In this document: positions 10,778 through 32,000 of the stretch, piece after piece
Layout: each line of letters begins with the position of its first letter
How positions within the stretch are numbered: position 1 is the first letter of the stretch
Notes under the pieces: generated by a model
Seen by the model: only the letters and a program-made list of their open reading frames with translations
What the model was told of the DNA's origin: nothing
Databases searched by the model: none
NCBI GenBank assembly: GCA_028700115.1
Contig: JAQVTI010000003.1
Coordinates: 38,551 to 70,550, forward strand
Source of the DNA: Candidatus Iainarchaeum sp.
GTDB lineage: Archaea > Iainarchaeota > Iainarchaeia > Iainarchaeales > CSSED10-239
DNA length: 32,000 nucleotides
Direction of reading: 5' to 3'
Position numbers and translations under genes: made by a program

Positions 10778-12718
10778 TTGGTAAATAAATCTTATTTAGA
10801 TAATTTGATAAATAAATATAAATCTTCAAAAGATTCTTTAAAGGAAAATAATCTTGAAAATAGTTCTTCTATACATATTAATGATAATTTAAATAATTCA
10901 GATTCAAATGAAAATTTAAAAGATTCAAAAGAAGTTTCTGAAAAATCTTTAAATCTTTATGGTAAAGAAAATTTAGATTCTTCAAATAGTAGTTATAGTA
11001 ATCAGTTAGGTTCTTCTAATAATATTAAAGAAAAATATACTTCTATTGATAATCTAATTAAAGAGCATTCTGAAGATTTATTTAAAAATAAAACTGATTT
11101 AGATAAATTAGATTCATCAAATATTTTTTTAAAAGATGATAATATAATTACTTCAAAAGAAAATTTAAAAGAAAATTCAAAAGAAAATTTAGATATTAAT
11201 TCAAAAAAATATCCCCAAAATTCAAATGATTTTTCAGAAAAAAAAACCGATTTTGAAAATGAATTAGAAAAAGAAACAAAGTCTCATTTAATTACAAAAT
11301 ATGGGGAAACTGAAATTTATAGATTAGATGGCCAAACAATGCTTCATTATAAAATTCCTGTTCCAAAAGCAAATCCTTCTCAAAAGATGATAATAAATAC
11401 TTTAAAGGAAGCAACTACAAGAATTATTTCTACAGATCCTTATAAAATTAGAGATCCTTTACAAAGAAGAAATATTTATTATCAAAAAGTTATAGATATT
11501 TTAGAAAATGCCTCTGAGATTAATATTCCGAAGCATTTATTTTCTTTTTATGCAGATTCTGTTGTAAAAGAAATGACAGGTTATGGTGTTTTAGAGTCAT
11601 TATTAAATGATGATAAGTTAGAAGAAATTATGGTTGTTGGTCCAAATAAGCCTGTTTATGTTTATCATGTAGATTATGGGATGATGACTACAAACATTAC
11701 TTTTTATTCAGATAATAGTATTTTAGAAATTATTGATAAAATTTCTAGAACTATTGGAAGACAAGTAGATATTTCTACACCTTTATTAGATGCAAGATTA
11801 CCAGATGGTTCTAGAGTTAATGCAACTATTCCACCTGCATCTCTTGATGGTTCTACTATTACAATTAGAAAATTTAGAGAAGACCCTTACACTATTACAG
11901 ATCTTGTAAAAATGAAAACTGTTAATTTGGAAGTTGCTGGTTTTTTATGGTGTGTAGTAGATGGATTTGGAGCAAAACCTTCTAATATTTTAATTTCTGG
12001 AGGTACTGGTTCAGGAAAAACAACTACTTTAAATGTTTTAGCAAATTTTATTCCAGAGTCTGATAGAGTATTAACTATTGAAGATACTGCAGAATTACAA
12101 CTTCCTATTAAGCATGTTGTAAGATTTGAAGGAAGACCCCCAGGTCTAGAAGGAAAAGGTGAATTAAGTTTAGAAATTCTTACAAAAAATACTTTAAGAA
12201 TGAGACCTGATAGAATAATTGTTGGTGAAATAAGACATAAAGAAGCAAGTACTTTATTTACTGCTATGAATACAGGTCATGATGGTTGTATGGGTACAAT
12301 TCATGCTAATTCTGCAAAAGAAACTTTAGTTAGAATTACTTCTCCTCCAATGAATGTTCCTCCATTAATGCTTGCTGGTATTGATTTTATAATTATTCAA
12401 AAAAGATTAAGAACAGTAAAAGGACAAGTAAGAAGAATAACTTCAATTGCTGAGGTTACAGGTGTTTTAGAAAATAAACCTGCTGTAAATATTATTTTTA
12501 AATGGAATCCTGAAAGTGATGTTTTAGAAAGAACTGAAAATCCTATTTATTATTTTGAAATTATAAAAACTTATACTAATTTGTCAGATTCTCAAATTAA
12601 ACAAAAAATTGAAAAAAGAATAAACATTTTAAAAGGTTTAGTTAATAATAACATTAGAGATTTAAAAAATGTTTCAAATATTATACAAGAAGAATATATT
12701 AGAGCTTTTTCTTCTTAA
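10778..12718 (+). CDS. Type IV pilus assembly ATPase (T2SSE / FlaI-PilB-TadA superfamily, EpdL-like) with long low-complexity N-terminal extension
   Basis: 646 aa. Walker A GGTGSGKTTT, Walker B-like RPDRIIVGEIR, His-box-like TGHDGCMGTIHAN. A FlaI-like N-domain starts near LITKYGETEIYRLDGQTMLHYKIPVP. The first ~170 aa are N/S/K/D/E-rich. There is no in-frame ATG before codon ~188, so a TTG start at 10778 with an SD is likely. Confidence 0.9.
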   Translation: MVNKSYLDNLINKYKSSKDSLKENNLENSSSIHINDNLNNSDSNENLKDSKEVSEKSLNLYGKENLDSSNSSYSNQLGSSNNIKEKYTSIDNLIKEHSEDLFKNKTDLDKLDSSNIFLKDDNIITSKENLKENSKENLDINSKKYPQNSNDFSEKKTDFENELEKETKSHLITKYGETEIYRLDGQTMLHYKIPVPKANPSQKMIINTLKEATTRIISTDPYKIRDPLQRRNIYYQKVIDILENASEINIPKHLFSFYADSVVKEMTGYGVLESLLNDDKLEEIMVVGPNKPVYVYHVDYGMMTTNITFYSDNSILEIIDKISRTIGRQVDISTPLLDARLPDGSRVNATIPPASLDGSTITIRKFREDPYTITDLVKMKTVNLEVAGFLWCVVDGFGAKPSNILISGGTGSGKTTTLNVLANFIPESDRVLTIEDTAELQLPIKHVVRFEGRPPGLEGKGELSLEILTKNTLRMRPDRIIVGEIRHKEASTLFTAMNTGHDGCMGTIHANSAKETLVRITSPPMNVPPLMLAGIDFIIIQKRLRTVKGQVRRITSIAEVTGVLENKPAVNIIFKWNPESDVLERTENPIYYFEIIKTYTNLSDSQIKQKIEKRINILKGLVNNNIRDLKNVSNIIQEEYIRAFSS

Positions 12719-12750
12719 ATAAATTTATTTATATTTGTATGTGAAAATAT

Positions 12751-13887
12751 ATGCCAGAAGAAAAATTAGATAATTTAAAAAAATCCACAAAAGATGTAAA
12801 TTTAGATATAGATATGGATGCTGTTCAAAGTATTGTATCTAAAATGAAAAATAAATCTGAATATAAAGTTAAAGGTGATGGTTTATCTGAAGGGCATTTA
12901 AAAGAATTAAGGGCTATTATTTCTGAAGGTAAAGTTTCTAGTTTAGATGTTGATGCAGAAAAAAAGCTTTCTGCAAATACAGATTCTGATTTGGAAAAAA
13001 GTATTGCAAAATATTATAAATTTTTTAAAGGATTAATTGATAAAATAGTTTTGATGATTGTAAGAAGTAAATCTGCACAAAAAGTTTCATATTATTTGAC
13101 TTCTGCAAATTCATCTAAAACTTTAGTTCAGCATTTAGTTATTTCTATTCTTTTTGCTTTATTTTTAGATATTTTTATGTCTATTATTGTTTTAATTATA
13201 TTACTTTTAATAAATCCAGTTATTGCAGCAATTATTTTACCAATTAGTTTAATTGTATTTTTATTTTTCTTTATATTTATTTTAGTTTATTTGTTACCTA
13301 AACAAAAAGCTAAAGTTAGAGGTAAATTGATAGATATAGATTTGCCTTTTGCCTTAAGACATATTGCAACAGAAGTTTCTGCAGGTCTAGGTTTGTATAA
13401 AGTTTTACAGTCTGTTGGTAAAAATGATTATGGTGTTTTATCAGAAGAAATTAACCGAACTATTTTAGAAATTGAAAATGGTACTGATACAAAAACTGCC
13501 CTAAGGCATACTGCTTTAAGAAGCCAATCTAAAAATTTTAATGTTGCATTATTTCATATTATAAGAACATTAAATACAGGTGGAAATCTTGCAAATACCA
13601 TTAATGGTGTTGCAGATACAGTTTCTTTTGATTTAATGGAAGATGCAAAAGTTTTTGGTGAAAAAATGAATTTCTTTGGAGTAATTTTTATATTTATTGC
13701 AATTGTTCTTCCTGTTTTTGTTGCTATTTTAGGTGGTATTGCAAATGCTCCTTTAGGTCAAGATGGGGCTTTATTTTTACCAGGAGTTATGACTCCTTCA
13801 ACTATGTCTGCAATTTTTGGAATTATTCTTCCTGTAATTTTTATATTTTTATTATATTATATTAAAATAATTTCTCCAAAGGTGTAA
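12751..13887 (+). CDS. Pilus platform membrane protein, single T2SSF domain (TadB/EpdJ-like)
   Basis: 378 aa. A cytoplasmic N-terminus is followed by TM helices, then a T2SSF-like segment LPFALRHIATEVSAGLGLYKVLQSVGKNDYGVLSEEINRTILEIENGTDTKTAL...LNTGGNLANTINGVADTV, then C-terminal TMs. Confidence 0.8.
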   Translation: MPEEKLDNLKKSTKDVNLDIDMDAVQSIVSKMKNKSEYKVKGDGLSEGHLKELRAIISEGKVSSLDVDAEKKLSANTDSDLEKSIAKYYKFFKGLIDKIVLMIVRSKSAQKVSYYLTSANSSKTLVQHLVISILFALFLDIFMSIIVLIILLLINPVIAAIILPISLIVFLFFFIFILVYLLPKQKAKVRGKLIDIDLPFALRHIATEVSAGLGLYKVLQSVGKNDYGVLSEEINRTILEIENGTDTKTALRHTALRSQSKNFNVALFHIIRTLNTGGNLANTINGVADTVSFDLMEDAKVFGEKMNFFGVIFIFIAIVLPVFVAILGGIANAPLGQDGALFLPGVMTPSTMSAIFGIILPVIFIFLLYYIKIISPKV

Positions 13888-13889
13888 TT

Positions 13890-14801
13890 GTGATTATAAA
13901 ATTTTTTGAAAAATGGTTAGATAGATATCAAATTTATTTATATGCTTTAAAGATAAAAATACCTGTGAATTATTGGATTTTGGGGATGGTATTTTTATCT
14001 TTATTGTTAGGTATTTTGGGTTATTTTATAGATTTAAAAATTGGATTAATTCTTTTTGTTTTAATTTTAGATTTAGGTATTGGTATACCTATATATTTAT
14101 ATAATAAACATATTAAAAATATTGAAAAAGATTGGCCAAGTGCATTAAAGTTAATTGCAGATACTATGAAAGCAGGTTCTTCTTTTGAATATGCTTTAAG
14201 AGAAGTTTCTACTTCTGATTTTGGAGAACTTTCTTTTGAAGTTAATGAAATGATTAGAAGATTAGAAATGGGAGATTCTATGCAATCTGCATTAGAGCAT
14301 TTATCTATAAGAATAGAATCTAGAACAGTTAGAAGAACAGTTACTTTAATTAAAGAATCATTAAGAACTGGTGCTCAGCTTGCAGATGTTTTAGATGAAA
14401 TTGCAAATGATACTAAATATATGTTTAGAATTAAAAAGGAAAGAATTACAAAAACTATGCTTCAAACAATATTTATTATTGCAGCAGGGGCTGTAATTGC
14501 ACCTTTTATTTTTGGATTAACTAGAGTAATAACTGGTTTTTTAACAGAAGTGTCTACAAATGCAGGTATTGCTACAGAATCTGCTTTGGCTGTTGCTTTA
14601 AATTCTCAAGCAACAATTTATGTTCTTTTAGATATTTATATTGTTATTGAAATTATTGCTGCTTCTGCAATAATTAGTTTAATGAGAGAAAGTAATTTAA
14701 GTAATATTTATTTGTATTTTCCTATACTTTTAACAATTGGTTATATTGTATATATGATTTCTCAAAAAGTTTTGGGGTATATGCTTACAGGAATGATTTA
14801 G
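13890..14801 (+). CDS. Pilus platform membrane protein, single T2SSF domain (TadC/EpdK-like)
   Basis: 303 aa. GTG start 5 nt after GGTG (13881-13884), 2 nt after the previous stop. T2SSF-like segment WPSALKLIADTMKAGSSFEYALREVSTSDFGELSFEVNEMIRRLEMGDSMQSAL...LRTGAQLADVLDEIANDT, flanked by TM helices. Confidence 0.8.
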   Translation: MIIKFFEKWLDRYQIYLYALKIKIPVNYWILGMVFLSLLLGILGYFIDLKIGLILFVLILDLGIGIPIYLYNKHIKNIEKDWPSALKLIADTMKAGSSFEYALREVSTSDFGELSFEVNEMIRRLEMGDSMQSALEHLSIRIESRTVRRTVTLIKESLRTGAQLADVLDEIANDTKYMFRIKKERITKTMLQTIFIIAAGAVIAPFIFGLTRVITGFLTEVSTNAGIATESALAVALNSQATIYVLLDIYIVIEIIAASAIISLMRESNLSNIYLYFPILLTIGYIVYMISQKVLGYMLTGMI

Positions 14802-14874
14802 GTTTTTTTATTTATTTCTGTTTTGTTTTTAATTAAATAGTTTTAAAAAAATAATTATAAAAATAAGAGAATTT

Positions 14875-15060
14875 ATGGATTTAAAAAAATTAAATGTTTT
14901 AAAATTTTTAAAAGAAGAAAAAGCACAAGTTTCTGTAGAATTTTTAATAGTTTTAGGGCTTGTTATTTTAGTTGCATTATTAGTGGGTTTTTATGTAAAA
15001 CAACTTTCTGGAAAGAAAGCTGGAGAAGCAAATGATTTAAAAAATCAAACATTTGAATGA
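14875..15060 (+). CDS. Flp-sized class III signal peptide protein (small pilin candidate)
   Basis: 61 aa. Leader MDLKKLNVLKFLKEEKA|QVSVEFLIVLGLVILVALLVGFYV, matching the QxSxExxxL motif with Q+1 and E+5. It has only a ~20-aa polar tail. Confidence 0.8.
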   Translation: MDLKKLNVLKFLKEEKAQVSVEFLIVLGLVILVALLVGFYVKQLSGKKAGEANDLKNQTFE

Positions 15061-15218
15061 TTTAAGGGTATTATTTTAGTTTGTTAATCTAAAAAGAAAG
15101 ATATATAAAGATAATGATGTAATATTTTGTTAAAGTTTATTATAATTTATATAAACTTTAAATTAAAATATTCTTTATAAAAGAATTTTTTTAAAATATT
15201 TTAAAAAAAAGATAAAAA

Positions 15219-15222
15219 GGTG
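15219..15222 (+). promoter_or_regulatory. Shine-Dalgarno-like AAAGGTG upstream of pilin gene
   Basis: aaaaaGGTGttattaaaATG, with 8-nt spacing to ATG 15231. Confidence 0.5.
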
Positions 15223-15230
15223 TTATTAAA

Positions 15231-15722
15231 ATGATTAAAAATAAAAAAGGACAAGGTGCCTTAGAATACCTATTACTAATTGGTGGTGCTGTTCTAATTG
15301 CTGTAATTGTAATTGCATTATTAGTTGGAATGGGTGGACAAAGTAGAGATTCTGCAAAAGATCAAGCAGACAAAGCTTCAAAAGCTACAGATATTCCTCA
15401 ACCTGCATCTATAACAAGTATCACTCCTGTTGCTAATTCTTGTACTCCAAATTCAGATGGAAATATAATTTTGGATTGGGCTCCTTTAGCTACTGGTGGA
15501 ACATATAATTTGAGAGCTTACGATTATACTGGTGAAAAGGATTTAAATGTTACTATTGGTAGTAATACTGATGGTAAATTAGATGCTTCTGTTTTACATC
15601 AAGAGAATATTATGATTTCTGGTGACGATTTTGCAGCTTGTGAAAACACATATTGGATTGAAGTTGTAACTACAAAGAATAACCAATCAGTTGCTTCTGC
15701 AAAAACAAAATTCAATTGGTAG
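15231..15722 (+). CDS. Type IV pilin with globular C-terminal domain (major pilin candidate)
   Basis: 163 aa. Leader MIKNKKG|QGALEYLLLIGGAVLIAVIVIALLV, then a beta-rich domain (ITSITPVANSCTPNSDGNIILDWAPLATGGTYNLRAYD...) with two Cys. It has its own SD, a long upstream intergenic region and a downstream hairpin plus T-tract. Confidence 0.8.
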   Translation: MIKNKKGQGALEYLLLIGGAVLIAVIVIALLVGMGGQSRDSAKDQADKASKATDIPQPASITSITPVANSCTPNSDGNIILDWAPLATGGTYNLRAYDYTGEKDLNVTIGSNTDGKLDASVLHQENIMISGDDFAACENTYWIEVVTTKNNQSVASAKTKFNW

Positions 15723-15735
15723 ATTTAAAATATAG

Positions 15736-15757
15736 TTTGTGTTTTTAAAAACACAAA
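15736..15757 (+). terminator. Hairpin plus T-tract downstream of pilin gene
   Basis: Perfect 22-nt palindrome tttgtgtttttaaaaacacaaa (9-bp stem, 4-nt loop if folded), 14 nt after the stop, followed by ttttctttttcttttttt. Confidence 0.5.
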
Positions 15758-15775
15758 TTTTCTTTTTCTTTTTTT

Positions 15776-15860
15776 AATTATTTTTTTTAAATAATTATTT
15801 TTTTTTAAATAATTATTTTTTTTATTATTTTTTTTAAATAATTATTTTTTTTAAATAAGA
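15776..15860. repeat. Intergenic tandem repeat, about 5 copies of a 17-18 nt unit AAATAATTATTTTTTTT(T)
   Basis: Read directly. Full units lie at 15789-15806 (9 T), 15807-15823 (8 T) and 15836-15852 (8 T). Partial units lie at 15776-15788, 15824-15835 and 15853-15860. The array sits between the two larger pilin genes. Confidence 0.85.
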
Positions 15861-15931
15861 ACATATATAAATATTTTGATATAATATTAAAATATAATAT
15901 TTGATTTAATTTTTAAAATAAAATAAAATTT

Positions 15932-16408
15932 ATGATTCTTATGGTTTTAAAAAATAAAAAAGGACAAAGCTCTTTAGAATATATGTTAATTATTGGTGGT
16001 GCTTTATTAGTTGCAATTATTGTTATAACCGTTGTTTTATCTTTAGGTAATGCAAATAAAGATTCTGCAGAAAGTACAAATCAAGATTATCAATATTTAA
16101 TAGACAGTACTATAATTCCTCCAATAATTACTAATGTAGATTGTAATATTGATTCTAATATTACTATTTATTTAAATACTTCTACAAGTAAAAATATTTC
16201 AGGATATAAGATTATTGTAGATGATTTTTTACCTTATCCAAGTGGTTTAGATGTAATTTATGAAACCTCTGGGGTAGTTTCTCAAAATGCTAATAGTTTA
16301 GGTATAAATACTGTTGGGCAAATATATAATATTTCTATAGTTGCAATTAAAAATAATTCTTCTTCAAGACCTTCAATGCCTTCAATGAGCTGTAAAGCAC
16401 ATAATTAA
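15932..16408 (+). CDS. Type IV pilin with globular C-terminal domain (second pilin)
   Basis: 158 aa from ATG 15932. ATG 15941 would give leader MVLKNKKG|QSSLEYMLIIGGALLVAIIVITVVL, a length closer to the other pilins. The C-terminal domain has two Cys and several N-x-S/T sequons (NIT, NTS, NIS, NNS). Confidence 0.8.
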   Translation: MILMVLKNKKGQSSLEYMLIIGGALLVAIIVITVVLSLGNANKDSAESTNQDYQYLIDSTIIPPIITNVDCNIDSNITIYLNTSTSKNISGYKIIVDDFLPYPSGLDVIYETSGVVSQNANSLGINTVGQIYNISIVAIKNNSSSRPSMPSMSCKAHN

Positions 16409-16432
16409 ATATATAGAAATTAAAGATAATTT

Positions 16433-16621
16433 ATGAAAAATATAAATAAATTTTTAAAAGAAGAAAAAGCACAAGTCTCTGTAGAATATTTAATTATGAT
16501 TGTTTTTGGTTTAATGCTTGTAATTACTACAGGAATAATTATAATCAATTTAAATAGTTTTGTAACTATGGCTAAAGCTAAAATTTTAACATATAGAGAT
16601 AATATTTTAGCAAGTTTATAG
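16433..16621 (+). CDS. Flp-sized class III signal peptide protein (small pilin candidate, paralog of 14875-15060)
   Basis: 62 aa. Leader MKNINKFLKEEKA|QVSVEYLIMIVFGLMLVITTGIIII. A 46-nt stretch (16449-16494) is 44/46 identical to 14903-14948. Confidence 0.8.
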   Translation: MKNINKFLKEEKAQVSVEYLIMIVFGLMLVITTGIIIINLNSFVTMAKAKILTYRDNILASL

Positions 16622-16669
16622 TTTAATTTTTAGAAAATGTATATTATGTTTTTTTAAAGTAGGTAATAA

Positions 16670-17794
16670 ATGTTTAATTTTTCTTTATTTTATTTTTTTA
16701 TTGTTTTATTTTTTTTAATTATTTCTTCATATACTGATTTTAAAAAAAGAATTGTATTAAATAAAGTTGTTTTATTTTTTTTAATTTTAGGTATTTTATT
16801 TAAAATTTTAGAAAGTGTTTTATTTAGTTCTTTTAATATTTTGTTATTTTCTATTTTATCTTTTATTATTTGTTTTATAATTTTTTATATTTTATGGAGT
16901 ATAGGTGTTTTTTCAGCAGGGGATGTAAAGGTTTTTTTAGTTATTTCTATATTTATTCCTAATAATTTAGTTTTTTTGAATATTTTAGATAAAATATATG
17001 TTCTTTCAAAACCAATATTTTCTTTAAATCTTTTATTTTTTTCAATTTTTTCAATTTTACCTTTTATTTTATTTTTTGCAGTTATAAAATTATTTAATAT
17101 AGATAATTTAATATTAATTAAAAATAAAATTTTTAAAAAATATTTTTTAGAAAGTATATTAAATTCTGTAATTATTTTATTTTTAGTTTCTTCTTTTTTA
17201 AGTATATTTAGTTCTTTTTTAAATTCTTTTTATATTTTTATTTTTTCATTATTTTTTATATTTTTTTTTAATAAATTAAAATCTATAATTAATAAAGGTA
17301 CTTATATTTTTTATGTTTTATTTTTTACATTTTTGTTTATTTATAATTTTTATATCCCAATTAATGTTTTTAATTTTAATAATTTTTTTTCAATAATTTT
17401 GAGTGTAAGTATTATTTTTGTTCTTTTAGTTTTATACACTATTATTAGAAATAAAATATTTACATATACAAAAAGTGTAGATAAACTTAAAGAAGGTGAT
17501 TTACTTTATTATAATTATTATTTTATAAATAATATGGTTTATACTAAAAAATATAATTTTATTAAATATATTTTTGATATATTGAAAAATAATTATTATA
17601 TTAACCTAAAAATTGATTCAAGACATTCTGCAGGAATTTTAAAATCAGACATTATATTTTTAAATGATTCCTATAACCATAATTTAATAGAAAAAGAAAT
17701 TAAATTAAAAAAAACAGTTCCTTTTATTCCAAGTGTTTTAATTGCATATATTATATTAAATATAATTGGAGATGTTTTTTGGTTTATTATATAA
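16670..17794 (+). CDS. Archaeal prepilin/preflagellin peptidase (A24 family aspartyl protease, EppA/PibD/FlaK-like) with extended C-terminal half
   Basis: 374 aa. The first catalytic Asp context is SSYTDFKKRIVLNK and the second is in the GxGD-type motif VFSAGDVKVF. The terminal TVPFIPSVLIAYIIL resembles the conserved last helix. About 200 aa of extra TM helices plus a polar segment lie between the core and the last helix. Confidence 0.85.
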   Translation: MFNFSLFYFFIVLFFLIISSYTDFKKRIVLNKVVLFFLILGILFKILESVLFSSFNILLFSILSFIICFIIFYILWSIGVFSAGDVKVFLVISIFIPNNLVFLNILDKIYVLSKPIFSLNLLFFSIFSILPFILFFAVIKLFNIDNLILIKNKIFKKYFLESILNSVIILFLVSSFLSIFSSFLNSFYIFIFSLFFIFFFNKLKSIINKGTYIFYVLFFTFLFIYNFYIPINVFNFNNFFSIILSVSIIFVLLVLYTIIRNKIFTYTKSVDKLKEGDLLYYNYYFINNMVYTKKYNFIKYIFDILKNNYYINLKIDSRHSAGILKSDIIFLNDSYNHNLIEKEIKLKKTVPFIPSVLIAYIILNIIGDVFWFII

Positions 17795-17808
17795 ATTTGT
17801 GATTATAT

Positions 17809-18276
17809 ATGATTAAAAATAAAAAAGCTCAGATTTCAATTGAATATATTGTTTTTATTGCAATTTTTTTAATGTTTTTTCAAGCTGTATTATATCCTTC
17901 TGCAGTTTTTGCAGAAAATATAATTAATGATGTTTCTAGTATTTCTCAATCTAGTCAAAGTATTAATTCTTTATCAAATTCTATTGAAAGTTTAGCCAAT
18001 AGTTCTGGTTATGGTAAAAGAACTATTTTTTTCTATCTTCCAGAGAATACTCATATGTCTATTGAAAGTAATAAAATTATCTATTCTATAGATATTTCTA
18101 ACCAAAAACCATTCCCTAATAATTGTTCTACAGGAATTTGTACTTTTGAAAAAATATTATATATTGGTTCTTTATCTATTTCTGAAGAAGATTCAGATAA
18201 CTTTATAGGCGGTTATTCTGGGAAACTTATTATTGAAAAAAAAGATAATGGTGTAATTAGTGTTAAAGCGGATTAA
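17809..18276 (+). CDS. Pilin-like protein with class III signal peptide (minor pilin candidate)
   Basis: 155 aa. Leader MIKNKKA|QISIEYIVFIAIFLMFF. GTGAT at 17799-17803, 5 nt upstream of the ATG. Confidence 0.7.
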   Translation: MIKNKKAQISIEYIVFIAIFLMFFQAVLYPSAVFAENIINDVSSISQSSQSINSLSNSIESLANSSGYGKRTIFFYLPENTHMSIESNKIIYSIDISNQKPFPNNCSTGICTFEKILYIGSLSISEEDSDNFIGGYSGKLIIEKKDNGVISVKAD

Positions 18277-18616
18277 AGCTCAAGCAAGTATCGAATATAT
18301 TGTAATTATTACTTTTATTTTAGCTATATCTATCTTTTTTGTATTAATTATTTTTAAAACAAATGATATTAATTATTCTATTCATCAAACAAAACAAGAA
18401 ACTTTAAGATTAATCTCAGAGTCAGATTCTTCTATTATTTTAGAAAAAATTAATTATGAAATTTCTGATAATACCATTTTACATTTAAATTTAAATTTTT
18501 TAAAAATACATCCTACAGATATTTTTTTTATTGATCAAAATTATTCTTTTGTTAAACAAAATATTTTAAATAAAACTAAATTTACAGACGTGGTTTTTAG
18601 TTTTAAATATATTTAA
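18260..18616 (+). CDS. Pilin-like protein with class III signal peptide (minor pilin candidate)
   Basis: 118 aa. GTG start 6 nt after GGTG (18250-18253), overlapping the previous gene by 17 nt. Leader (V)LKRIKA|QASIEYIVIITFILAISIFF. Confidence 0.65.
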   Translation: MLKRIKAQASIEYIVIITFILAISIFFVLIIFKTNDINYSIHQTKQETLRLISESDSSIILEKINYEISDNTILHLNLNFLKIHPTDIFFIDQNYSFVKQNILNKTKFTDVVFSFKYI

Positions 18617-21260: not shown

Positions 21261-23924
<2,664 letters not shown>

Positions 23925-28569: not shown

Positions 28570-28575
28570 GGTGAT
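28570..28575 (+). promoter_or_regulatory. Shine-Dalgarno-like GGTGAT, 5 nt upstream of TTG start of the adhesin gene
   Basis: GGTGATatgttTTG, the same geometry as at 10767-10780. Confidence 0.55.
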
Positions 28576-28580
28576 ATGTT

Positions 28581-30779
28581 TTGAAAAAGAAAATTAAACT
28601 TAAAGGTCAAGTCTCAATTGAGGTTTTAGCTATTTTAGGAGTTTTAATAATTGGTGCTGTTTTATTAGGTGTTTTTTATTTAAACACAATTTATGATAAA
28701 ATGGACGAAGGAACTGATATTGGTTCTTTAACAGATGGTTTTGATTTTGGTTTTGATGACGAACCAGGAACTCCTGGTGGACCAGTTGTTCCAACTTGTG
28801 ATAATGACGGTGTAAGAGAAACTGGTGAAGAGTGTGATGGATCTGATTTTGGTAGTGTGACTTGTTCTTCTTTTGCAGGATATATTGGAGATGAAGCAAA
28901 CTTAATTTGTAATGATTGTGAAATTGATTTTTCTTCTTGTGAAGTTGACCCAGAAGACCCACCAGTTTGTGGGGATAATCTAATTAACCAAGCTTCTGAA
29001 GTTTGTGATGATTCTGATTTTGATGGAAAAACATGTGAGGATTATACACCTTCAGGTTATTATTTTGTTTCAGGAAGTCTAGAATGTAGAGATAATTGTA
29101 CAACAATAGATACTTCAAATTGTAAATTTGAAGAAATTGTTACAGAAAACTGTGGAAACGGTATTTTAGATTCTGGTGAAGAATGTGATTATAATGGTCA
29201 AGTTTTTAGTTTTGAACCAGTAAATTGTCAAGCTTATGGTTTATTAGAACCAATTAGTTTTGTTGGATCATCTACAGCTGTAACTTGTACTACTGAATGT
29301 AGAGTTGATACTAGTAGTTGTCTAGATCCAGAAGTTCCAGGAACATGTGATCAATTTAATTTAGAACAATGTATTTTAGAACCAGAAGTTTGTAAAGAAT
29401 GTAGTAATGAAATCACAGGAACTATTTTTAATACAAGTGATGTAAATTGTGCAATTGCTGGTTGTTGTGGAGATAGAGATTGTACTATTTCAAAAACACT
29501 TTCTACATTTCCATATGTAGGAAATTATTTGTATGAAATCCCACAAGGTTCATTATCTATTTTAAATGGATATGGAGAAAGTATAACTTTTGGAAGTAAT
29601 ACATTTAAAATAAATCCAGAAGTTATGCATGAATGTGAAGATGATTGTGATACTCTTTGTAGTTTTAATCACTCTAGTGGAGTTACAACTGAAATTTTAG
29701 CAGGTGAACTTGTTGAAGTTTGTCAAGAATGTTATTATAATAATAGTTCTGTTGATTGTTGTGGAAATGGGATTTGTAGTTCTAGTGAGACTTCTTTAAG
29801 TTGTCCAATAGACTGTAATACATTTAATCCTCAATTTACAATAAATTCAACACCTTCTAGTTTAGAAAGTTATGTAAGTGGTGGATTTAATGTTGATGTT
29901 TCTGCATTTAACTTTGATGATACTGCAATGTATTTTGGTTTGAAGTTGCATGTTTATGATACATCTACAAATGAACTTTCAAACAACTGTTCATATGATG
30001 GAACTTATAGTAGTGTTTTAGATTTAGGTAGTTATAGTAAGAATGATCCAAATCATTCATTTACATTTGTTTGTAACACTATTGGGGATTATGAATTTAA
30101 GTTTGTAGGTTCAGAATATATTTTAGATCCAAACACTGGTGGAACTCAAACAAACATGCCAATTGCATTTGCTGAAGACCATTCTGATGTAAGTATAATT
30201 TCTGCCGGTTCTCCTCAAATATTAAATTTATATTCTTCTGTTAATTCTGTGACTACTCAATCAGATGTTGAATTTGATATAACTTTACAAAGTAGAAATG
30301 AAGCTTCTCAAGTAACTTTAAATGTTGTTGATAATTATAATTTTGTTTTAAATGATTGTACATATAATAGCATTCCAATTACAGAAGATTATTTACTTTC
30401 AAACTTCAATCAAGATGAAACAAAGACATTTACTTTCAAATGTTCTGATGAAATTATGCATAAATTTAATTTTTATGGAGTAACTATAGAAGAACCAATC
30501 CAAGATTCAAGTGAATCTGTACAAGTAAATGTAGTTAATGAAGAAATACAAGAAGGTATTAATCCTTATGCTTTATGTAGTCCAGTTGTTTCAAGTGTAT
30601 CTGGAGATCAAACTCTAAGAATTTGTGTAAATGATCTTTTTGCAACATCTACATCTGGAGGTAATACTCTTACAATATATGTAAATAATCCTACATATTC
30701 AGAAAGAGAAGATACTACTCCAAATTGTACTACTTTAAATGGAAATACACTTTGTATATATCCAGGAAAATTAAATTAA
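28581..30779 (+). CDS. Large modular cysteine-rich surface protein with pilin-type class III signal peptide (modular pilin / adhesin candidate)
   Basis: 732 aa. Leader (L)KKKIKLKG|QVSIEVLAILGVLIIGAVLLGVF. Three six-Cys repeats follow (aa 73-120, 130-181, 191-247), e.g. CGNGILDSGEECDYNG. Further Cys-rich segments include CCGNGICSSSETSLSCPIDC. Two ~90-aa repeats each carry a Cys pair 28 residues apart. I counted 44 Cys in total. Confidence 0.8.
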   Translation: MKKKIKLKGQVSIEVLAILGVLIIGAVLLGVFYLNTIYDKMDEGTDIGSLTDGFDFGFDDEPGTPGGPVVPTCDNDGVRETGEECDGSDFGSVTCSSFAGYIGDEANLICNDCEIDFSSCEVDPEDPPVCGDNLINQASEVCDDSDFDGKTCEDYTPSGYYFVSGSLECRDNCTTIDTSNCKFEEIVTENCGNGILDSGEECDYNGQVFSFEPVNCQAYGLLEPISFVGSSTAVTCTTECRVDTSSCLDPEVPGTCDQFNLEQCILEPEVCKECSNEITGTIFNTSDVNCAIAGCCGDRDCTISKTLSTFPYVGNYLYEIPQGSLSILNGYGESITFGSNTFKINPEVMHECEDDCDTLCSFNHSSGVTTEILAGELVEVCQECYYNNSSVDCCGNGICSSSETSLSCPIDCNTFNPQFTINSTPSSLESYVSGGFNVDVSAFNFDDTAMYFGLKLHVYDTSTNELSNNCSYDGTYSSVLDLGSYSKNDPNHSFTFVCNTIGDYEFKFVGSEYILDPNTGGTQTNMPIAFAEDHSDVSIISAGSPQILNLYSSVNSVTTQSDVEFDITLQSRNEASQVTLNVVDNYNFVLNDCTYNSIPITEDYLLSNFNQDETKTFTFKCSDEIMHKFNFYGVTIEEPIQDSSESVQVNVVNEEIQEGINPYALCSPVVSSVSGDQTLRICVNDLFATSTSGGNTLTIYVNNPTYSEREDTTPNCTTLNGNTLCIYPGKLN

Positions 30780-30857: not shown

Positions 30858-32000
30858 ATGAATAAGAATATAATATATATTATATTTATCATTTGTTTTT
30901 TATTTTCATTTAGCTATGTTTATGCTTATTCTTCAACAAATGTTTTAAACTACGTTTCTCAAACTAAATCTTCTCAAAATATAAATCCAAATATAACAAT
31001 TAGTTCAAATAATAATATTTCAAATATTTCTCAAATTAATCCAAATTTTGATTTAAATCAAAATGATTGTGGTGGTATTTCTTTTGGAGATGTTTATTAT
31101 CCTCCTGGTATTTGTAGTAAAGCAGATGTAAAAGAATATATAAAAAACATAACTTCAATCTCACCAAAAGACAATTTTACTTCTGTAGAAAATATCTGGG
31201 GAACTTGTCCTACAGAAGGAGATTTTACAATTCCAGTTTTTATGGTTGAGTTTTCAGATCAACCACATAAAGCAGACATTACTTTTGAAGATATAAATGC
31301 TGCTTATAATGATCCAAATTATCTTGATGAAAATGGAATTAGTGTTTCTGATTATTACTTACACCAATCTTATGGTGCATTAAATCTTTCATTTGATGTT
31401 TATGAAGATTGGTATGAACTTCCAGAAACTTTTGAATATTATAAAACAAATAATTCAACACAATTTCAAATGTTTATGGATTTTTTAGATCTTGTTGACT
31501 CAGAAGTAGACTTTAGTCAATATGATGCAGATGGTGATGGAAGAATGGAAGGTCTTATATTAATAAGATCTGGAGAAGTTAGTTCTCAATTTAAAAATCA
31601 TACTAGAATTATGAATGGTTCTAGTTATAATAGAGATGATACTTTTTTAGGAAATATGTATGTTGTTGCTTCTGAATTTGATGAAGGTATTTGTAATATG
31701 TATCAACAAGAATTTGGTTTTCCTGAAGATTGTAGAATGGATGTTCAAGTTTTAATTCATGAATTTGGTCATATTTTAGGAGTTCCTGATTTATATGAGG
31801 CTCATAATAGTCATGCATTAGGTCCTGGATTAGATGAATTAACAGTTATGGCTGCTGATCAAACAAATCCAAATTTCCCTCCTAATTTTGATGTTTGGTC
31901 AAAGACTTTTTTTGGTTGGATTAATCCAACCATTATCGGTTCACAAGATGCTGGTTTTTATAATCTGCCAACTTTAGATGATACTCCTATTGCTTATGTT
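30858..32000 (+). CDS. Secreted M6-like (immune inhibitor A-type) zinc metalloprotease, 3'-truncated at window edge
   Basis: Not in the ORF track because there is no stop in the window; I translated 381 codons without a stop. Sec-type leader MNKNIIYIIFIICFLFSFSYVYA. Further markers: FTIPVFMVEFSDQP, DADGDGRMEGLILI, and the zinc site VLIHEFGHILGVPDLYE. Confidence 0.75.
   Translation, partial: MNKNIIYIIFIICFLFSFSYVYAYSSTNVLNYVSQTKSSQNINPNITISSNNNISNISQINPNFDLNQNDCGGISFGDVYYPPGICSKADVKEYIKNITSISPKDNFTSVENIWGTCPTEGDFTIPVFMVEFSDQPHKADITFEDINAAYNDPNYLDENGISVSDYYLHQSYGALNLSFDVYEDWYELPETFEYYKTNNSTQFQMFMDFLDLVDSEVDFSQYDADGDGRMEGLILIRSGEVSSQFKNHTRIMNGSSYNRDDTFLGNMYVVASEFDEGICNMYQQEFGFPEDCRMDVQVLIHEFGHILGVPDLYEAHNSHALGPGLDELTVMAADQTNPNFPPNFDVWSKTFFGWINPTIIGSQDAGFYNLPTLDDTPIAYV

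Follow-up and report, generated by a model that had tools for sequence, protein, structure and literature searches.

The locus

The stretch analysed here (the window) comprises 32,000 nucleotides (nt) of the forward strand of contig JAQVTI010000003.1 (positions 38,551 to 70,550; assembly GCA_028700115.1) from Candidatus Iainarchaeum sp., a DPANN genus of the kingdom Nanobdellati (NCBI taxonomy). Its GC content of 22%, together with the labels of metagenome-assembled genomes (MAGs), suggests that the organism is an episymbiont. We are concerned with a single gene of this window, at 28581-30779 (the target), whose product of 732 amino acids (aa) is identical to MDD3975896.1, deposited as 'hypothetical protein'. 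An earlier note, made from the sequence alone, had proposed that it is an archaeal modular pilin carrying a large cysteine-rich binding module. The protein combines a pilin-type leader and helix, an acidic linker and a cysteine-rich ectodomain with immunoglobulin-like (Ig-like) domains, and is a candidate pilus-displayed adhesin. The gene, its parts and its immediate neighbour are as follows (AF2, AlphaFold 2 model; ORF, open reading frame; HMM, hidden Markov model).

28570-28583, forward: GGTGAT Shine-Dalgarno-like box, 5-nt spacer and TTG start (read from the sequence)
28581-30779, forward: target ORF, 732 aa, TTG start (ORF listing)
28581-28607, forward: class III signal leader MKKKIKLKG (aa 1-9), cleavage predicted between G9 and Q10 (ungapped alignment)
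28608-28715, forward: pilin-type hydrophobic helix (aa 10-45), homologous to short pilins of 61-62 aa (hhalign, profile search, AF2)
28716-28796, forward: acidic Gly/Pro-rich linker (aa 46-72) (composition, AF2)
28797-29321, forward: three six-Cys units (aa 73-120, 130-181, 191-247), a 46-aa variant of DUF4215/TIGR02232 (unit HMM)
29322-29816, forward: 18-Cys region (aa 248-412), ending in the four-Cys mini-module CGNGICSSSETSLSCPIDC (aa 394-412) (Cys positions)
29817-30125, forward: Ig-like domain 1, Ig1 (aa 413-515), with C470/C498 and the motif C-N-x-x-G-x-Y-x-F-x-F (AF2, alignment)
30154-30712, forward: strain-variable segment (gene nt 1574-2132, aa 525-711) (window compared with L005)
30201-30545, forward: Ig-like domain 2, Ig2 (aa 541-655), with C593/C621 (alignment, AF2)
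30561-30779, forward: conserved four-Cys C-terminal module (aa 661-732) and stop codon (shared motif)
30858-32000 (cut by the window end), forward: secreted M6-family metalloprotease with an HEFGH motif and a Sec-type signal (TIGR03296, PF05547)

The gene opens with TTG, placed 5 nt beyond a GGTGAT box at 28570-28575; this start, its spacing and the type of leader had been read in the same way in the earlier note and all check out in the sequence. No in-frame ATG was found between the upstream stop codon and the predicted cleavage site. The GGTGAT-N5-TTG geometry is identical to that of the pilus ATPase gene at 10778. TTG is the sole possible start, 8-10 codons before the cleavage site, in ten of the 18 distinct large members of the protein family described below (window 28581; L001 476; L002 10001; L006 557; L007 9992; L008 10595; L016; L017; L021; L025; here and below L designates loci and P proteins). 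Most short pilins start with ATG, and the TTG start may hold the large subunit at low abundance.

Cysteine makes up 6.0% of the target; for the remaining 30 genes of the window the figure is 1.07%. There are 44 Cys in total, and a recount agrees with the 36 previously assigned to aa 73-412. The Cys richness and repeat pattern are far above chance, as judged from this difference, from the matches to the unit profile and from 908 phmmer matches (see below). At third codon positions the GC content of the gene is 7.0%, the level of its neighbours, and a recent horizontal transfer was rejected on this ground; its higher total GC results from its amino-acid composition.

The N-terminal pilin module

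The target N-terminus reads MKKKIKLKG followed by QVSIEVLAILGVLIIGAVLLGVF. It conforms to the class III (EppA) rule, that is, a short basic leader of 5-13 aa ending in Gly or Ala, Gln at +1, Glu at +5 and a hydrophobic stretch of about 20 aa. The EppA substrates of Methanococcus maripaludis have a leader of 5-13 aa ending in Gly, with +1 Gln and +5 Glu (PMC3875500).

The residues Q+1, S+3 and E+5 do not vary in a gap-free alignment of 52 columns and 19 sequences, consisting of target residues 1-52, 16 relatives and the 61-aa and 62-aa pilins of the window. We also built a leader profile from the relatives alone, with the window pilins excluded, and compared it with a profile of 36 short UPF0333/PF04021 pilins. 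This gave an hhalign probability of 97.2% (E 4.6e-11, 45 columns). Both results bear out the pilin-type leader proposed in the earlier note, and homology of the target to the cluster pilins of about 60 aa extends throughout residues 1-48. When 5.8 billion proteins were searched with the leader profile, 67 short class III pilins were recovered, all of 58-77 aa and many carrying PF04021 or the UPF0333 name. The same search recovered short pilins only and not one large member of the family.

The helix is the best-conserved part of the protein family, with a mean column identity of 66% compared with 23% in the whole-family alignment, and by this measure its conservation exceeds the need of a plain membrane anchor. 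In bacterial type IV pilins, Glu5 is important for assembly rather than for cleavage. The AF2 model places the helix at residues 13-45 with a predicted local distance difference test score (pLDDT) of 72-86. The linker that follows is acidic, with nine D/E and one K/R in aa 39-72, and has a pLDDT below 50 for residues 49-69. The sequence comparisons thus support a class III (type IV pilin-like) signal and helix of the same kind as in the pilins of the window's pilus cluster, with cleavage by a prepilin peptidase predicted between G9 and Q10.

The cysteine-rich ectodomain

Our count of six Cys in each of the three units agrees with the earlier one. An HMM built from these units and iterated once (consensus CGNGVLDPGEECDGSDLGGKTCSDLGFSGGTLSCTSDCTLDTSGC) matches them with E-values of 2e-11, 1.3e-14 and 1.9e-11, and there are 1678 copies of the 46-aa unit in 169 retrieved proteins. 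A phmmer search against 1.84 billion representatives gave 908 matches at E<=1e-3 (best E 7.6e-114), most of them bacterial and through six-Cys units only, with partners of up to about 30 units. The motif with which the earlier note had described the units holds for units 1 and 2; unit 3 (CGNGILDSGEECD) is one residue shorter and fits with a 1-residue gap only.

The same note had likened the units to DUF4215 (PF13948) and TIGR02232 ('Myxococcus cysteine-rich acidic repeat'). They share with these the unit start CGNG-x3-5-GE-x-CD, and homologues of the target pass the models: PF13948 is present in 12 of 25 word-index homologues, P0004 (a tandem array of variant units) scores 33.4 on PF13948 (cut-off 27) and P0139 (leader and two units) scores 21.9 on TIGR02232 (cut-off 20.8). 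The target itself fails both curated cut-offs. It reaches 14.1 bits on TIGR02232 and has no match to PF13948, even when the isolated repeat region is searched at E<=10, and the 46-aa unit consensus also remains below both cut-offs. Both models align no further than the initial 16-33 residues (the CGNG..GE.CD half), whereas the target unit is 46-57 aa long, contains six Cys and continues with a different second half (..G..TC..LG..GG.L.C...C..DTS.C). On these comparisons the units are a variant of the DUF4215/TIGR02232 class and not members of it by the curated test.

In the 18-Cys region, CCGDRDC lies at aa 295-301 and CCGNGICSSSETSLSCPIDC at aa 393-412, where Cys393 completes the CCGNGIC... 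string given earlier. A mini-module of the form CG[DN]GxC...CPxDC also immediately precedes the Ig domain in P0002, P0075, P0101, P0109, P0157 and P0009.

The two repeats of about 90 aa with Cys pairs exactly 28 residues apart (C470/C498 and C593/C621), and a terminal module with two further pairs (Cys 666, 682, 716 and 725), were confirmed as described in the earlier note. Ig1 is modelled by AF2 as strands only, with a pLDDT of 83-95; the values for Ig2 are 57-79. C470, C498, Y504 and F508 are invariant in family alignments. Foldseek matches in the PDB are to integrin leg domains, antibody domains and factor XIII barrels, with E-values down to 3.5e-6. The tandem Ig-like fold therefore stands, although the CARDB domain named with it in the earlier note does not: no CARDB or named Ig family was found on the target with Pfam, the sole match being DUF7350 on Ig2 at 18 bits (cut-off 27).

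Ig1 and Ig2 are 30% identical over 43 ungapped residues (pairwise E 0.006). Since Ig2 is missing from all 14 other aligned family members and is found only in the target and its 96% allele, it is, on the alignment, an extra, diverged and lineage-specific copy of Ig1 inserted into the common plan. AF2 models the end module as a small beta domain (pLDDT 72-83 in the full-length model and 41-65 in a C-terminal model). Its motif, YALC..NG..C[VI]N...G.L.[IVF][FY][VI]N.P...E...C...G.LC..G, is common to P0009, P0010, P0071, P0083, P0104, P0118 and P0133.

The protein family

Leader and helix are shared by at least 17 proteins of 170-1578 aa from AT-rich assemblies of uncultured archaea, which are probably DPANN. 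The general plan begins with leader, helix and linker and continues with six-Cys units or other Cys-rich modules in varying number. The CG[DN]GxC...CPxDC mini-module often comes next, and one Ig-like domain with the invariant Cys pair and the motif C-N-x-x-G-x-Y-x-F-x-F follows. The C-terminus is either the conserved 70-aa four-Cys end module or Fn3_assoc/CHB_HEX_C repeats. Minimal members have 300-380 aa and one or two units; the largest, P0109, has 1578 aa. The target organism has a 565-aa paralogue whose leader carries two conservative substitutions in the first 24 residues. We found no description of the family, of its pairing with an M6 protease or of the Ig2 variation in the literature, where our coverage is incomplete and novelty is not proven thereby.

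In several genomes a small protein (120-172 aa) with a class III leader, a K-A|Q site and one Cys-rich unit is encoded directly upstream of the large member (L002 9304-9822; L006 3-371; L008/L009 10001-10387; L021 216-602). The target is not preceded by such a gene. One of these contigs, L009 (CAYNMU010000050.1), is binned as 'uncultured Eubacteriales bacterium'. Its 128-aa leader gene has the size, coordinates and leader of that in the archaeal MAG L008 and it also holds the start of a large family gene. It is probably a mis-binned archaeal contig.

Strain variation

The same locus is available from a second strain (contig L005 of MAG GCA_028691725.1). Over 6.3 kb, window and L005 agree at 98.7% of positions. 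Of 66 mismatches, 63 lie within gene nt 1574-2132 (aa 525-711), a stretch that takes in Ig2 and the beginning of the end module, and gene nt 1-1572 is free of them. The survey for elevated sequence diversity recommended in the earlier note thus finds it, sharply localised. By the Nei-Gojobori method, synonymous (dS) and non-synonymous (dN) divergence are 0.168 and 0.177 in Ig2 (aa 541-655; dN/dS 1.05) and 0.119 and 0.006 in the end module (aa 656-732; dN/dS 0.05). Within the variable segment, Ig2 appears on these ratios to be free of purifying constraint and the end module to be strongly constrained. Of 30 changed residues, 22 are outside predicted strands.

Because the boundary is sharp, with dS of about 0.12-0.17 inside the segment and 0 elsewhere, the segment indicates a divergent allele imported by recombination; the alternative is a strain-chimeric MAG contig. 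A diversity-generating retroelement was considered as the source and rejected: the changes form clustered multi-nucleotide patches and are not adenine-specific. Substitutions are of all types (24 transitions and 39 transversions), and domain searches of the window ORFs revealed no reverse transcriptase.

Between the two MAGs, the 565-aa paralogue (P0009 and P0240) has only five scattered residue differences and no localised hypervariable segment. One of the five is a Cys to Gly change at aa 196.

The M6 metalloprotease neighbour

The gene following the target matches TIGR03296 (E 7e-31) with 108.1 bits, just under the curated cut-off of 110.8, and PF05547 with an E-value of 4e-6. Genes for M6 proteases adjoin Ig-bearing members of the family in seven distinct loci and in both gene orders. 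The orthologues, in L001, L002/L015, L006, L010, L017 and L018, are 34-45% identical. The coordinates of the M6 genes are as follows.

Window: 30858-32000
L001: 2261-4642
L002: 12672-14825
L006: 4164-6293
L010: 1-1851
L017: 9210-11645
L018: 5697-7895

In L001 (GCA_028691725.1) a family paralogue is paired with its own M6 paralogue. No M6 gene adjoins members that lack the Ig motif or have only 141-143 aa (L011-L014, L024, L027 and L031).

On a 2.6-kb contig, L020 (152-2610), a family member is broken over three frames and an Ig/Fn3_assoc segment runs into the C-terminal half of an M6 protease. We considered this as a Rosetta-stone fusion of the two proteins and set it aside as a likely assembly or deletion artefact, because of this frame disruption in the upstream gene on so short a contig.

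The pilus cluster of the window

Searches with Pfam and NCBIfam and a motif scan identify a type IV pilus cluster in the window, with the following genes.

10778-18616, forward: type IV pilus cluster (Pfam/NCBIfam searches, motif scan)
10778-12718, forward: T2SSE ATPase (Pfam)
12751-13887 and 13890-14801, forward: two T2SSF platform proteins (Pfam)
14875, 15231, 15932, 16433, 17809 and 18260, forward: six class III pilin-like genes (motif scan)
16670-17794, forward: A24 prepilin peptidase with the archaeal C-terminal domain Arc_PepC (Pfam)

The last of these is the 'cluster peptidase' invoked in the earlier note. It has NCBIfam similarity to EppA/FlaK, below the cut-off. The layout matches the 'system 1'/Epd-like arrangement that a 2026 preprint gives to methanogens and DPANN. 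The motif scan detects class III-type N-termini in just seven ORFs of the window: the six cluster genes (14875-18616) and the target, which is the sole class III ORF of the window with more than 170 aa. Cluster and target are separated by GrpE/DnaK/DnaJ, radical-SAM, S4/FtsJ-type methyltransferase and DHH genes.

The window pilins at 14875-15060 and 16433-16621 (61-62 aa) represent two distinct and widely conserved short class III subfamilies, with the motifs ...KQLSGKKAGEA... and ...AKAKILTYRDNIL, which co-occur in many AT-rich archaeal MAGs. Elsewhere in the window, the GrpE homologue (21261-22037) has an N-terminal array of about 15 copies of the tetrapeptide KDET, at about 21340-21550. The small adjacent ORFs 273-431 and 428-829 have similar terminal Cys motifs (C-x-C ... 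C-D-C ... C), and the latter has an N-terminal membrane helix.

Proposed display on a pilus and its alternatives

We favour, as probable but held with limited confidence, the view that the target is a pilus-displayed adhesin made of a helix-only pilin module, an acidic linker and a disulfide-rich ectodomain of about 690 aa. The preprotein would insert in the membrane and the EppA-like A24 peptidase of the cluster (16670-17794) would remove MKKKIKLKG. The mature helix, with Gln1 and Glu5, would then be taken up by the ATPase and the two-platform machinery alongside the short pilins of 61-62 aa. As a low-abundance (TTG-initiated) minor subunit, the target would most plausibly be placed at the filament tip. 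The six-Cys units and the 18-Cys region would form a rigid stalk projecting the Ig-like domains and the end module outwards, and the extra, fast-diverging Ig2 would be the ligand-contacting part that determines specificity, with a host as the presumed ligand. The secreted M6 protease may act at the same interface, on the surface layer of the partner or on the adhesin itself.

Several observations weigh against this view. PF04021 does not match the full target and gives 10.8 bits on aa 1-53, compared with a cut-off of 23.7; TIGR04205 also fails, with 15.4 bits (cut-off 65). In the AF2 model the helix leads to the first six-Cys unit with no globular domain in between. The modular pilin of the earlier note therefore survives as pilin helix, linker and non-pilus modules, although with a pilin part that is helix only and lacks a globular head, so that a cargo of about 690 aa would hang on a single helix. 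In the 18-Cys region the pLDDT is 25-36 and aa 248-414 are effectively unmodelled. The Foldseek matches are those of a generic tandem Ig-like beta-sandwich, from which no ligand can be named. A dN/dS of about 1 in Ig2 is equally compatible with relaxed constraint, and the variable segment itself may come from a chimeric contig, as noted above.

Genomic context is a further point on this side. The target had been called the same type as the pilins upstream, and the type does match; the pilins, however, belong to a cluster 10 kb away and the target is outside the pilus operon. Apart from the window, L011 is the sole related locus with a pilus gene (an ATPase) in its flank. The pilus-operon context implied by the earlier note is not upheld, since related genomes link the family gene to the M6 protease and not to pilus genes.

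The main rival explanation is a protein whose class III signal is processed but which is not on a pilus: an envelope adhesin or receptor, anchored by its helix or assembled in a pseudopilus or a bindosome-like raft. Archaeal class III signals do serve non-filament surface proteins, as in the bindosome (PMC4858521), and this precedent also counts against pilus display. The missing pilin head, the usual lack of linkage to pilus genes and the very large cargo (up to 1578 aa in P0109) fit such a protein as well. We nevertheless think it rather unlikely: it is the whole 45-residue helix, and not just the cleavage motif, that is homologous to filament-type short pilins and forms the most conserved part of the family, and Glu+5 is invariant.

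A protein that is not primarily an adhesin appears improbable. It might be a partner of the M6 protease (as tether, substrate, scaffold or inhibitor) or a structural component of a matrix or sheath. The gene pair is kept in seven loci and both gene orders, and the strongly conserved end module (dN/dS 0.05) is a possible docking site. Against this, members with other architectures (L011-L014, L024, L027 and L031) have no adjacent M6 gene, and strain-level hypervariation in one exposed Ig domain is easier to reconcile with recognition of an external ligand that itself varies than with binding to a conserved protease of the same cell.

Very improbable, because homology extends along the whole helix and Glu+5 is invariant, is an uncleaved signal anchor of an ordinary type II membrane protein whose pilin likeness would be convergent hydrophobicity: hydrophobic helices can yield spurious profile matches and PF04021 is below its cut-off on the target, but the invariant residues and the hhalign result given above, the PF04021 scores of other members (22.6 bits for P0139 and 17.2 for P0071), a leader length and Gly at -1 that fit the EppA rule, and the quite different Sec-type signal of the adjacent M6 protease all speak against it.

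Relation to known systems

Modular type IV pilins are an established bacterial concept, exemplified by PilB and PilC of Streptococcus sanguinis (Raynaud et al. 2021, PMC8179133); the target would be an archaeal, helix-only version. Like PilB and PilC, it has a class III signal and pilin N-terminus, a linker and a bulky module that is not pilus-specific, and tip display and adhesion have been proposed for those proteins as we propose them here (PMC8179133). Unlike the target, PilB has a complete pilin fold (helix and beta-sheet head) before the graft (PMC8179133). The cargo also differs: a single vWA or lectin domain in PilB/PilC and a multi-module, presumably disulfide-rich stalk with Ig domains in the target. 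The survey of modular pilins used the bacterial signature IPR012902, and archaea are never mentioned in the text of the paper (PMC8179133).

The Epd pilus of M. maripaludis (MMP1685, MMP0600/0601/0709) resembles the system in the window in its leader ending in Gly, its +1 Gln and +5 Glu, its major pilins of the 60-aa class, its two platform genes and its dedicated EppA-type peptidase (PMC3875500). The major pilin MMP1685 has 74 aa, the pilin genes occupy at least four separate loci, and there are larger pilin-like proteins of 200-299 aa without an assigned role (PMC3875500). Methanococcal DUF361/PF04021 proteins have at most about 300 aa and are not Cys-rich, in contrast to the target. DUF4215-like units, a core of Ig domain and end module, and an M6 partner are not described for them, again unlike the family of the target.

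The bindosome exports large non-pilin ectodomains by means of a class III signal and depends on a type IV pilus-like assembly system. Its cargo is a solute-binding protein, whereas no such domain was found in the target by Pfam and NCBIfam searches, and the target helix, unlike that of the bindosome, is homologous to filament-forming short pilins. In Sulfolobus, the class III signal is carried by sugar-binding surface proteins that do not form filaments (PMC4858521).

Archaeal pilus loci encode predicted large adhesins, many of them Ig-rich (PilY/DUF2341-like proteins, arCOG05616 and arCOG07037; PMC4858521, 2026 preprint). Like the target they are predicted adhesins, and they are associated with archaeal type IV filaments. 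They are, however, encoded inside pilus loci and are mostly not pilins, whereas the target carries the pilin helix itself. Pfam and NCBIfam searches of the target gave no match to DUF2341 or to a PilY beta-propeller. New in our analysis are the adjacent M6 gene in seven loci, the extra Ig domain of the target alone and the variation localised to Ig2 and the start of the end module.

Implications for DPANN biology

This locus provides a concrete and testable candidate for the means by which ultra-small DPANN archaea locate a particular host and keep hold of it. The candidate rests on a helix matching the organism's own pilins, a stalk of variable length, a strain-variable distal Ig domain and a conserved protease neighbour. 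We know of no DPANN adhesin that has so far been tied to a pilus. Filaments have been seen at sites of host contact in DPANN (bioRxiv 10.1101/2023.10.27.564410), and in Nanoarchaeota no genes are more polymorphic than those for surface proteins (PMC6142677).

If pilus display of the target is correct, it would extend the idea of modular pilins from bacteria to archaea and to helix-only pilins, and the widespread DUF4215-type repeats would gain a structural role as a stalk. A broader proposal, which we regard as speculative and doubtful as it stands, is that the family and the M6 protease form a two-gene host-engagement cassette of DPANN. The tip adhesin would carry an Ig domain that is swapped by recombination, and duplicated in the lineage of the target, and that sets the host, and the protease would open the surface layer. 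If this were true, allele typing of one domain would predict the host range of uncultured episymbionts.

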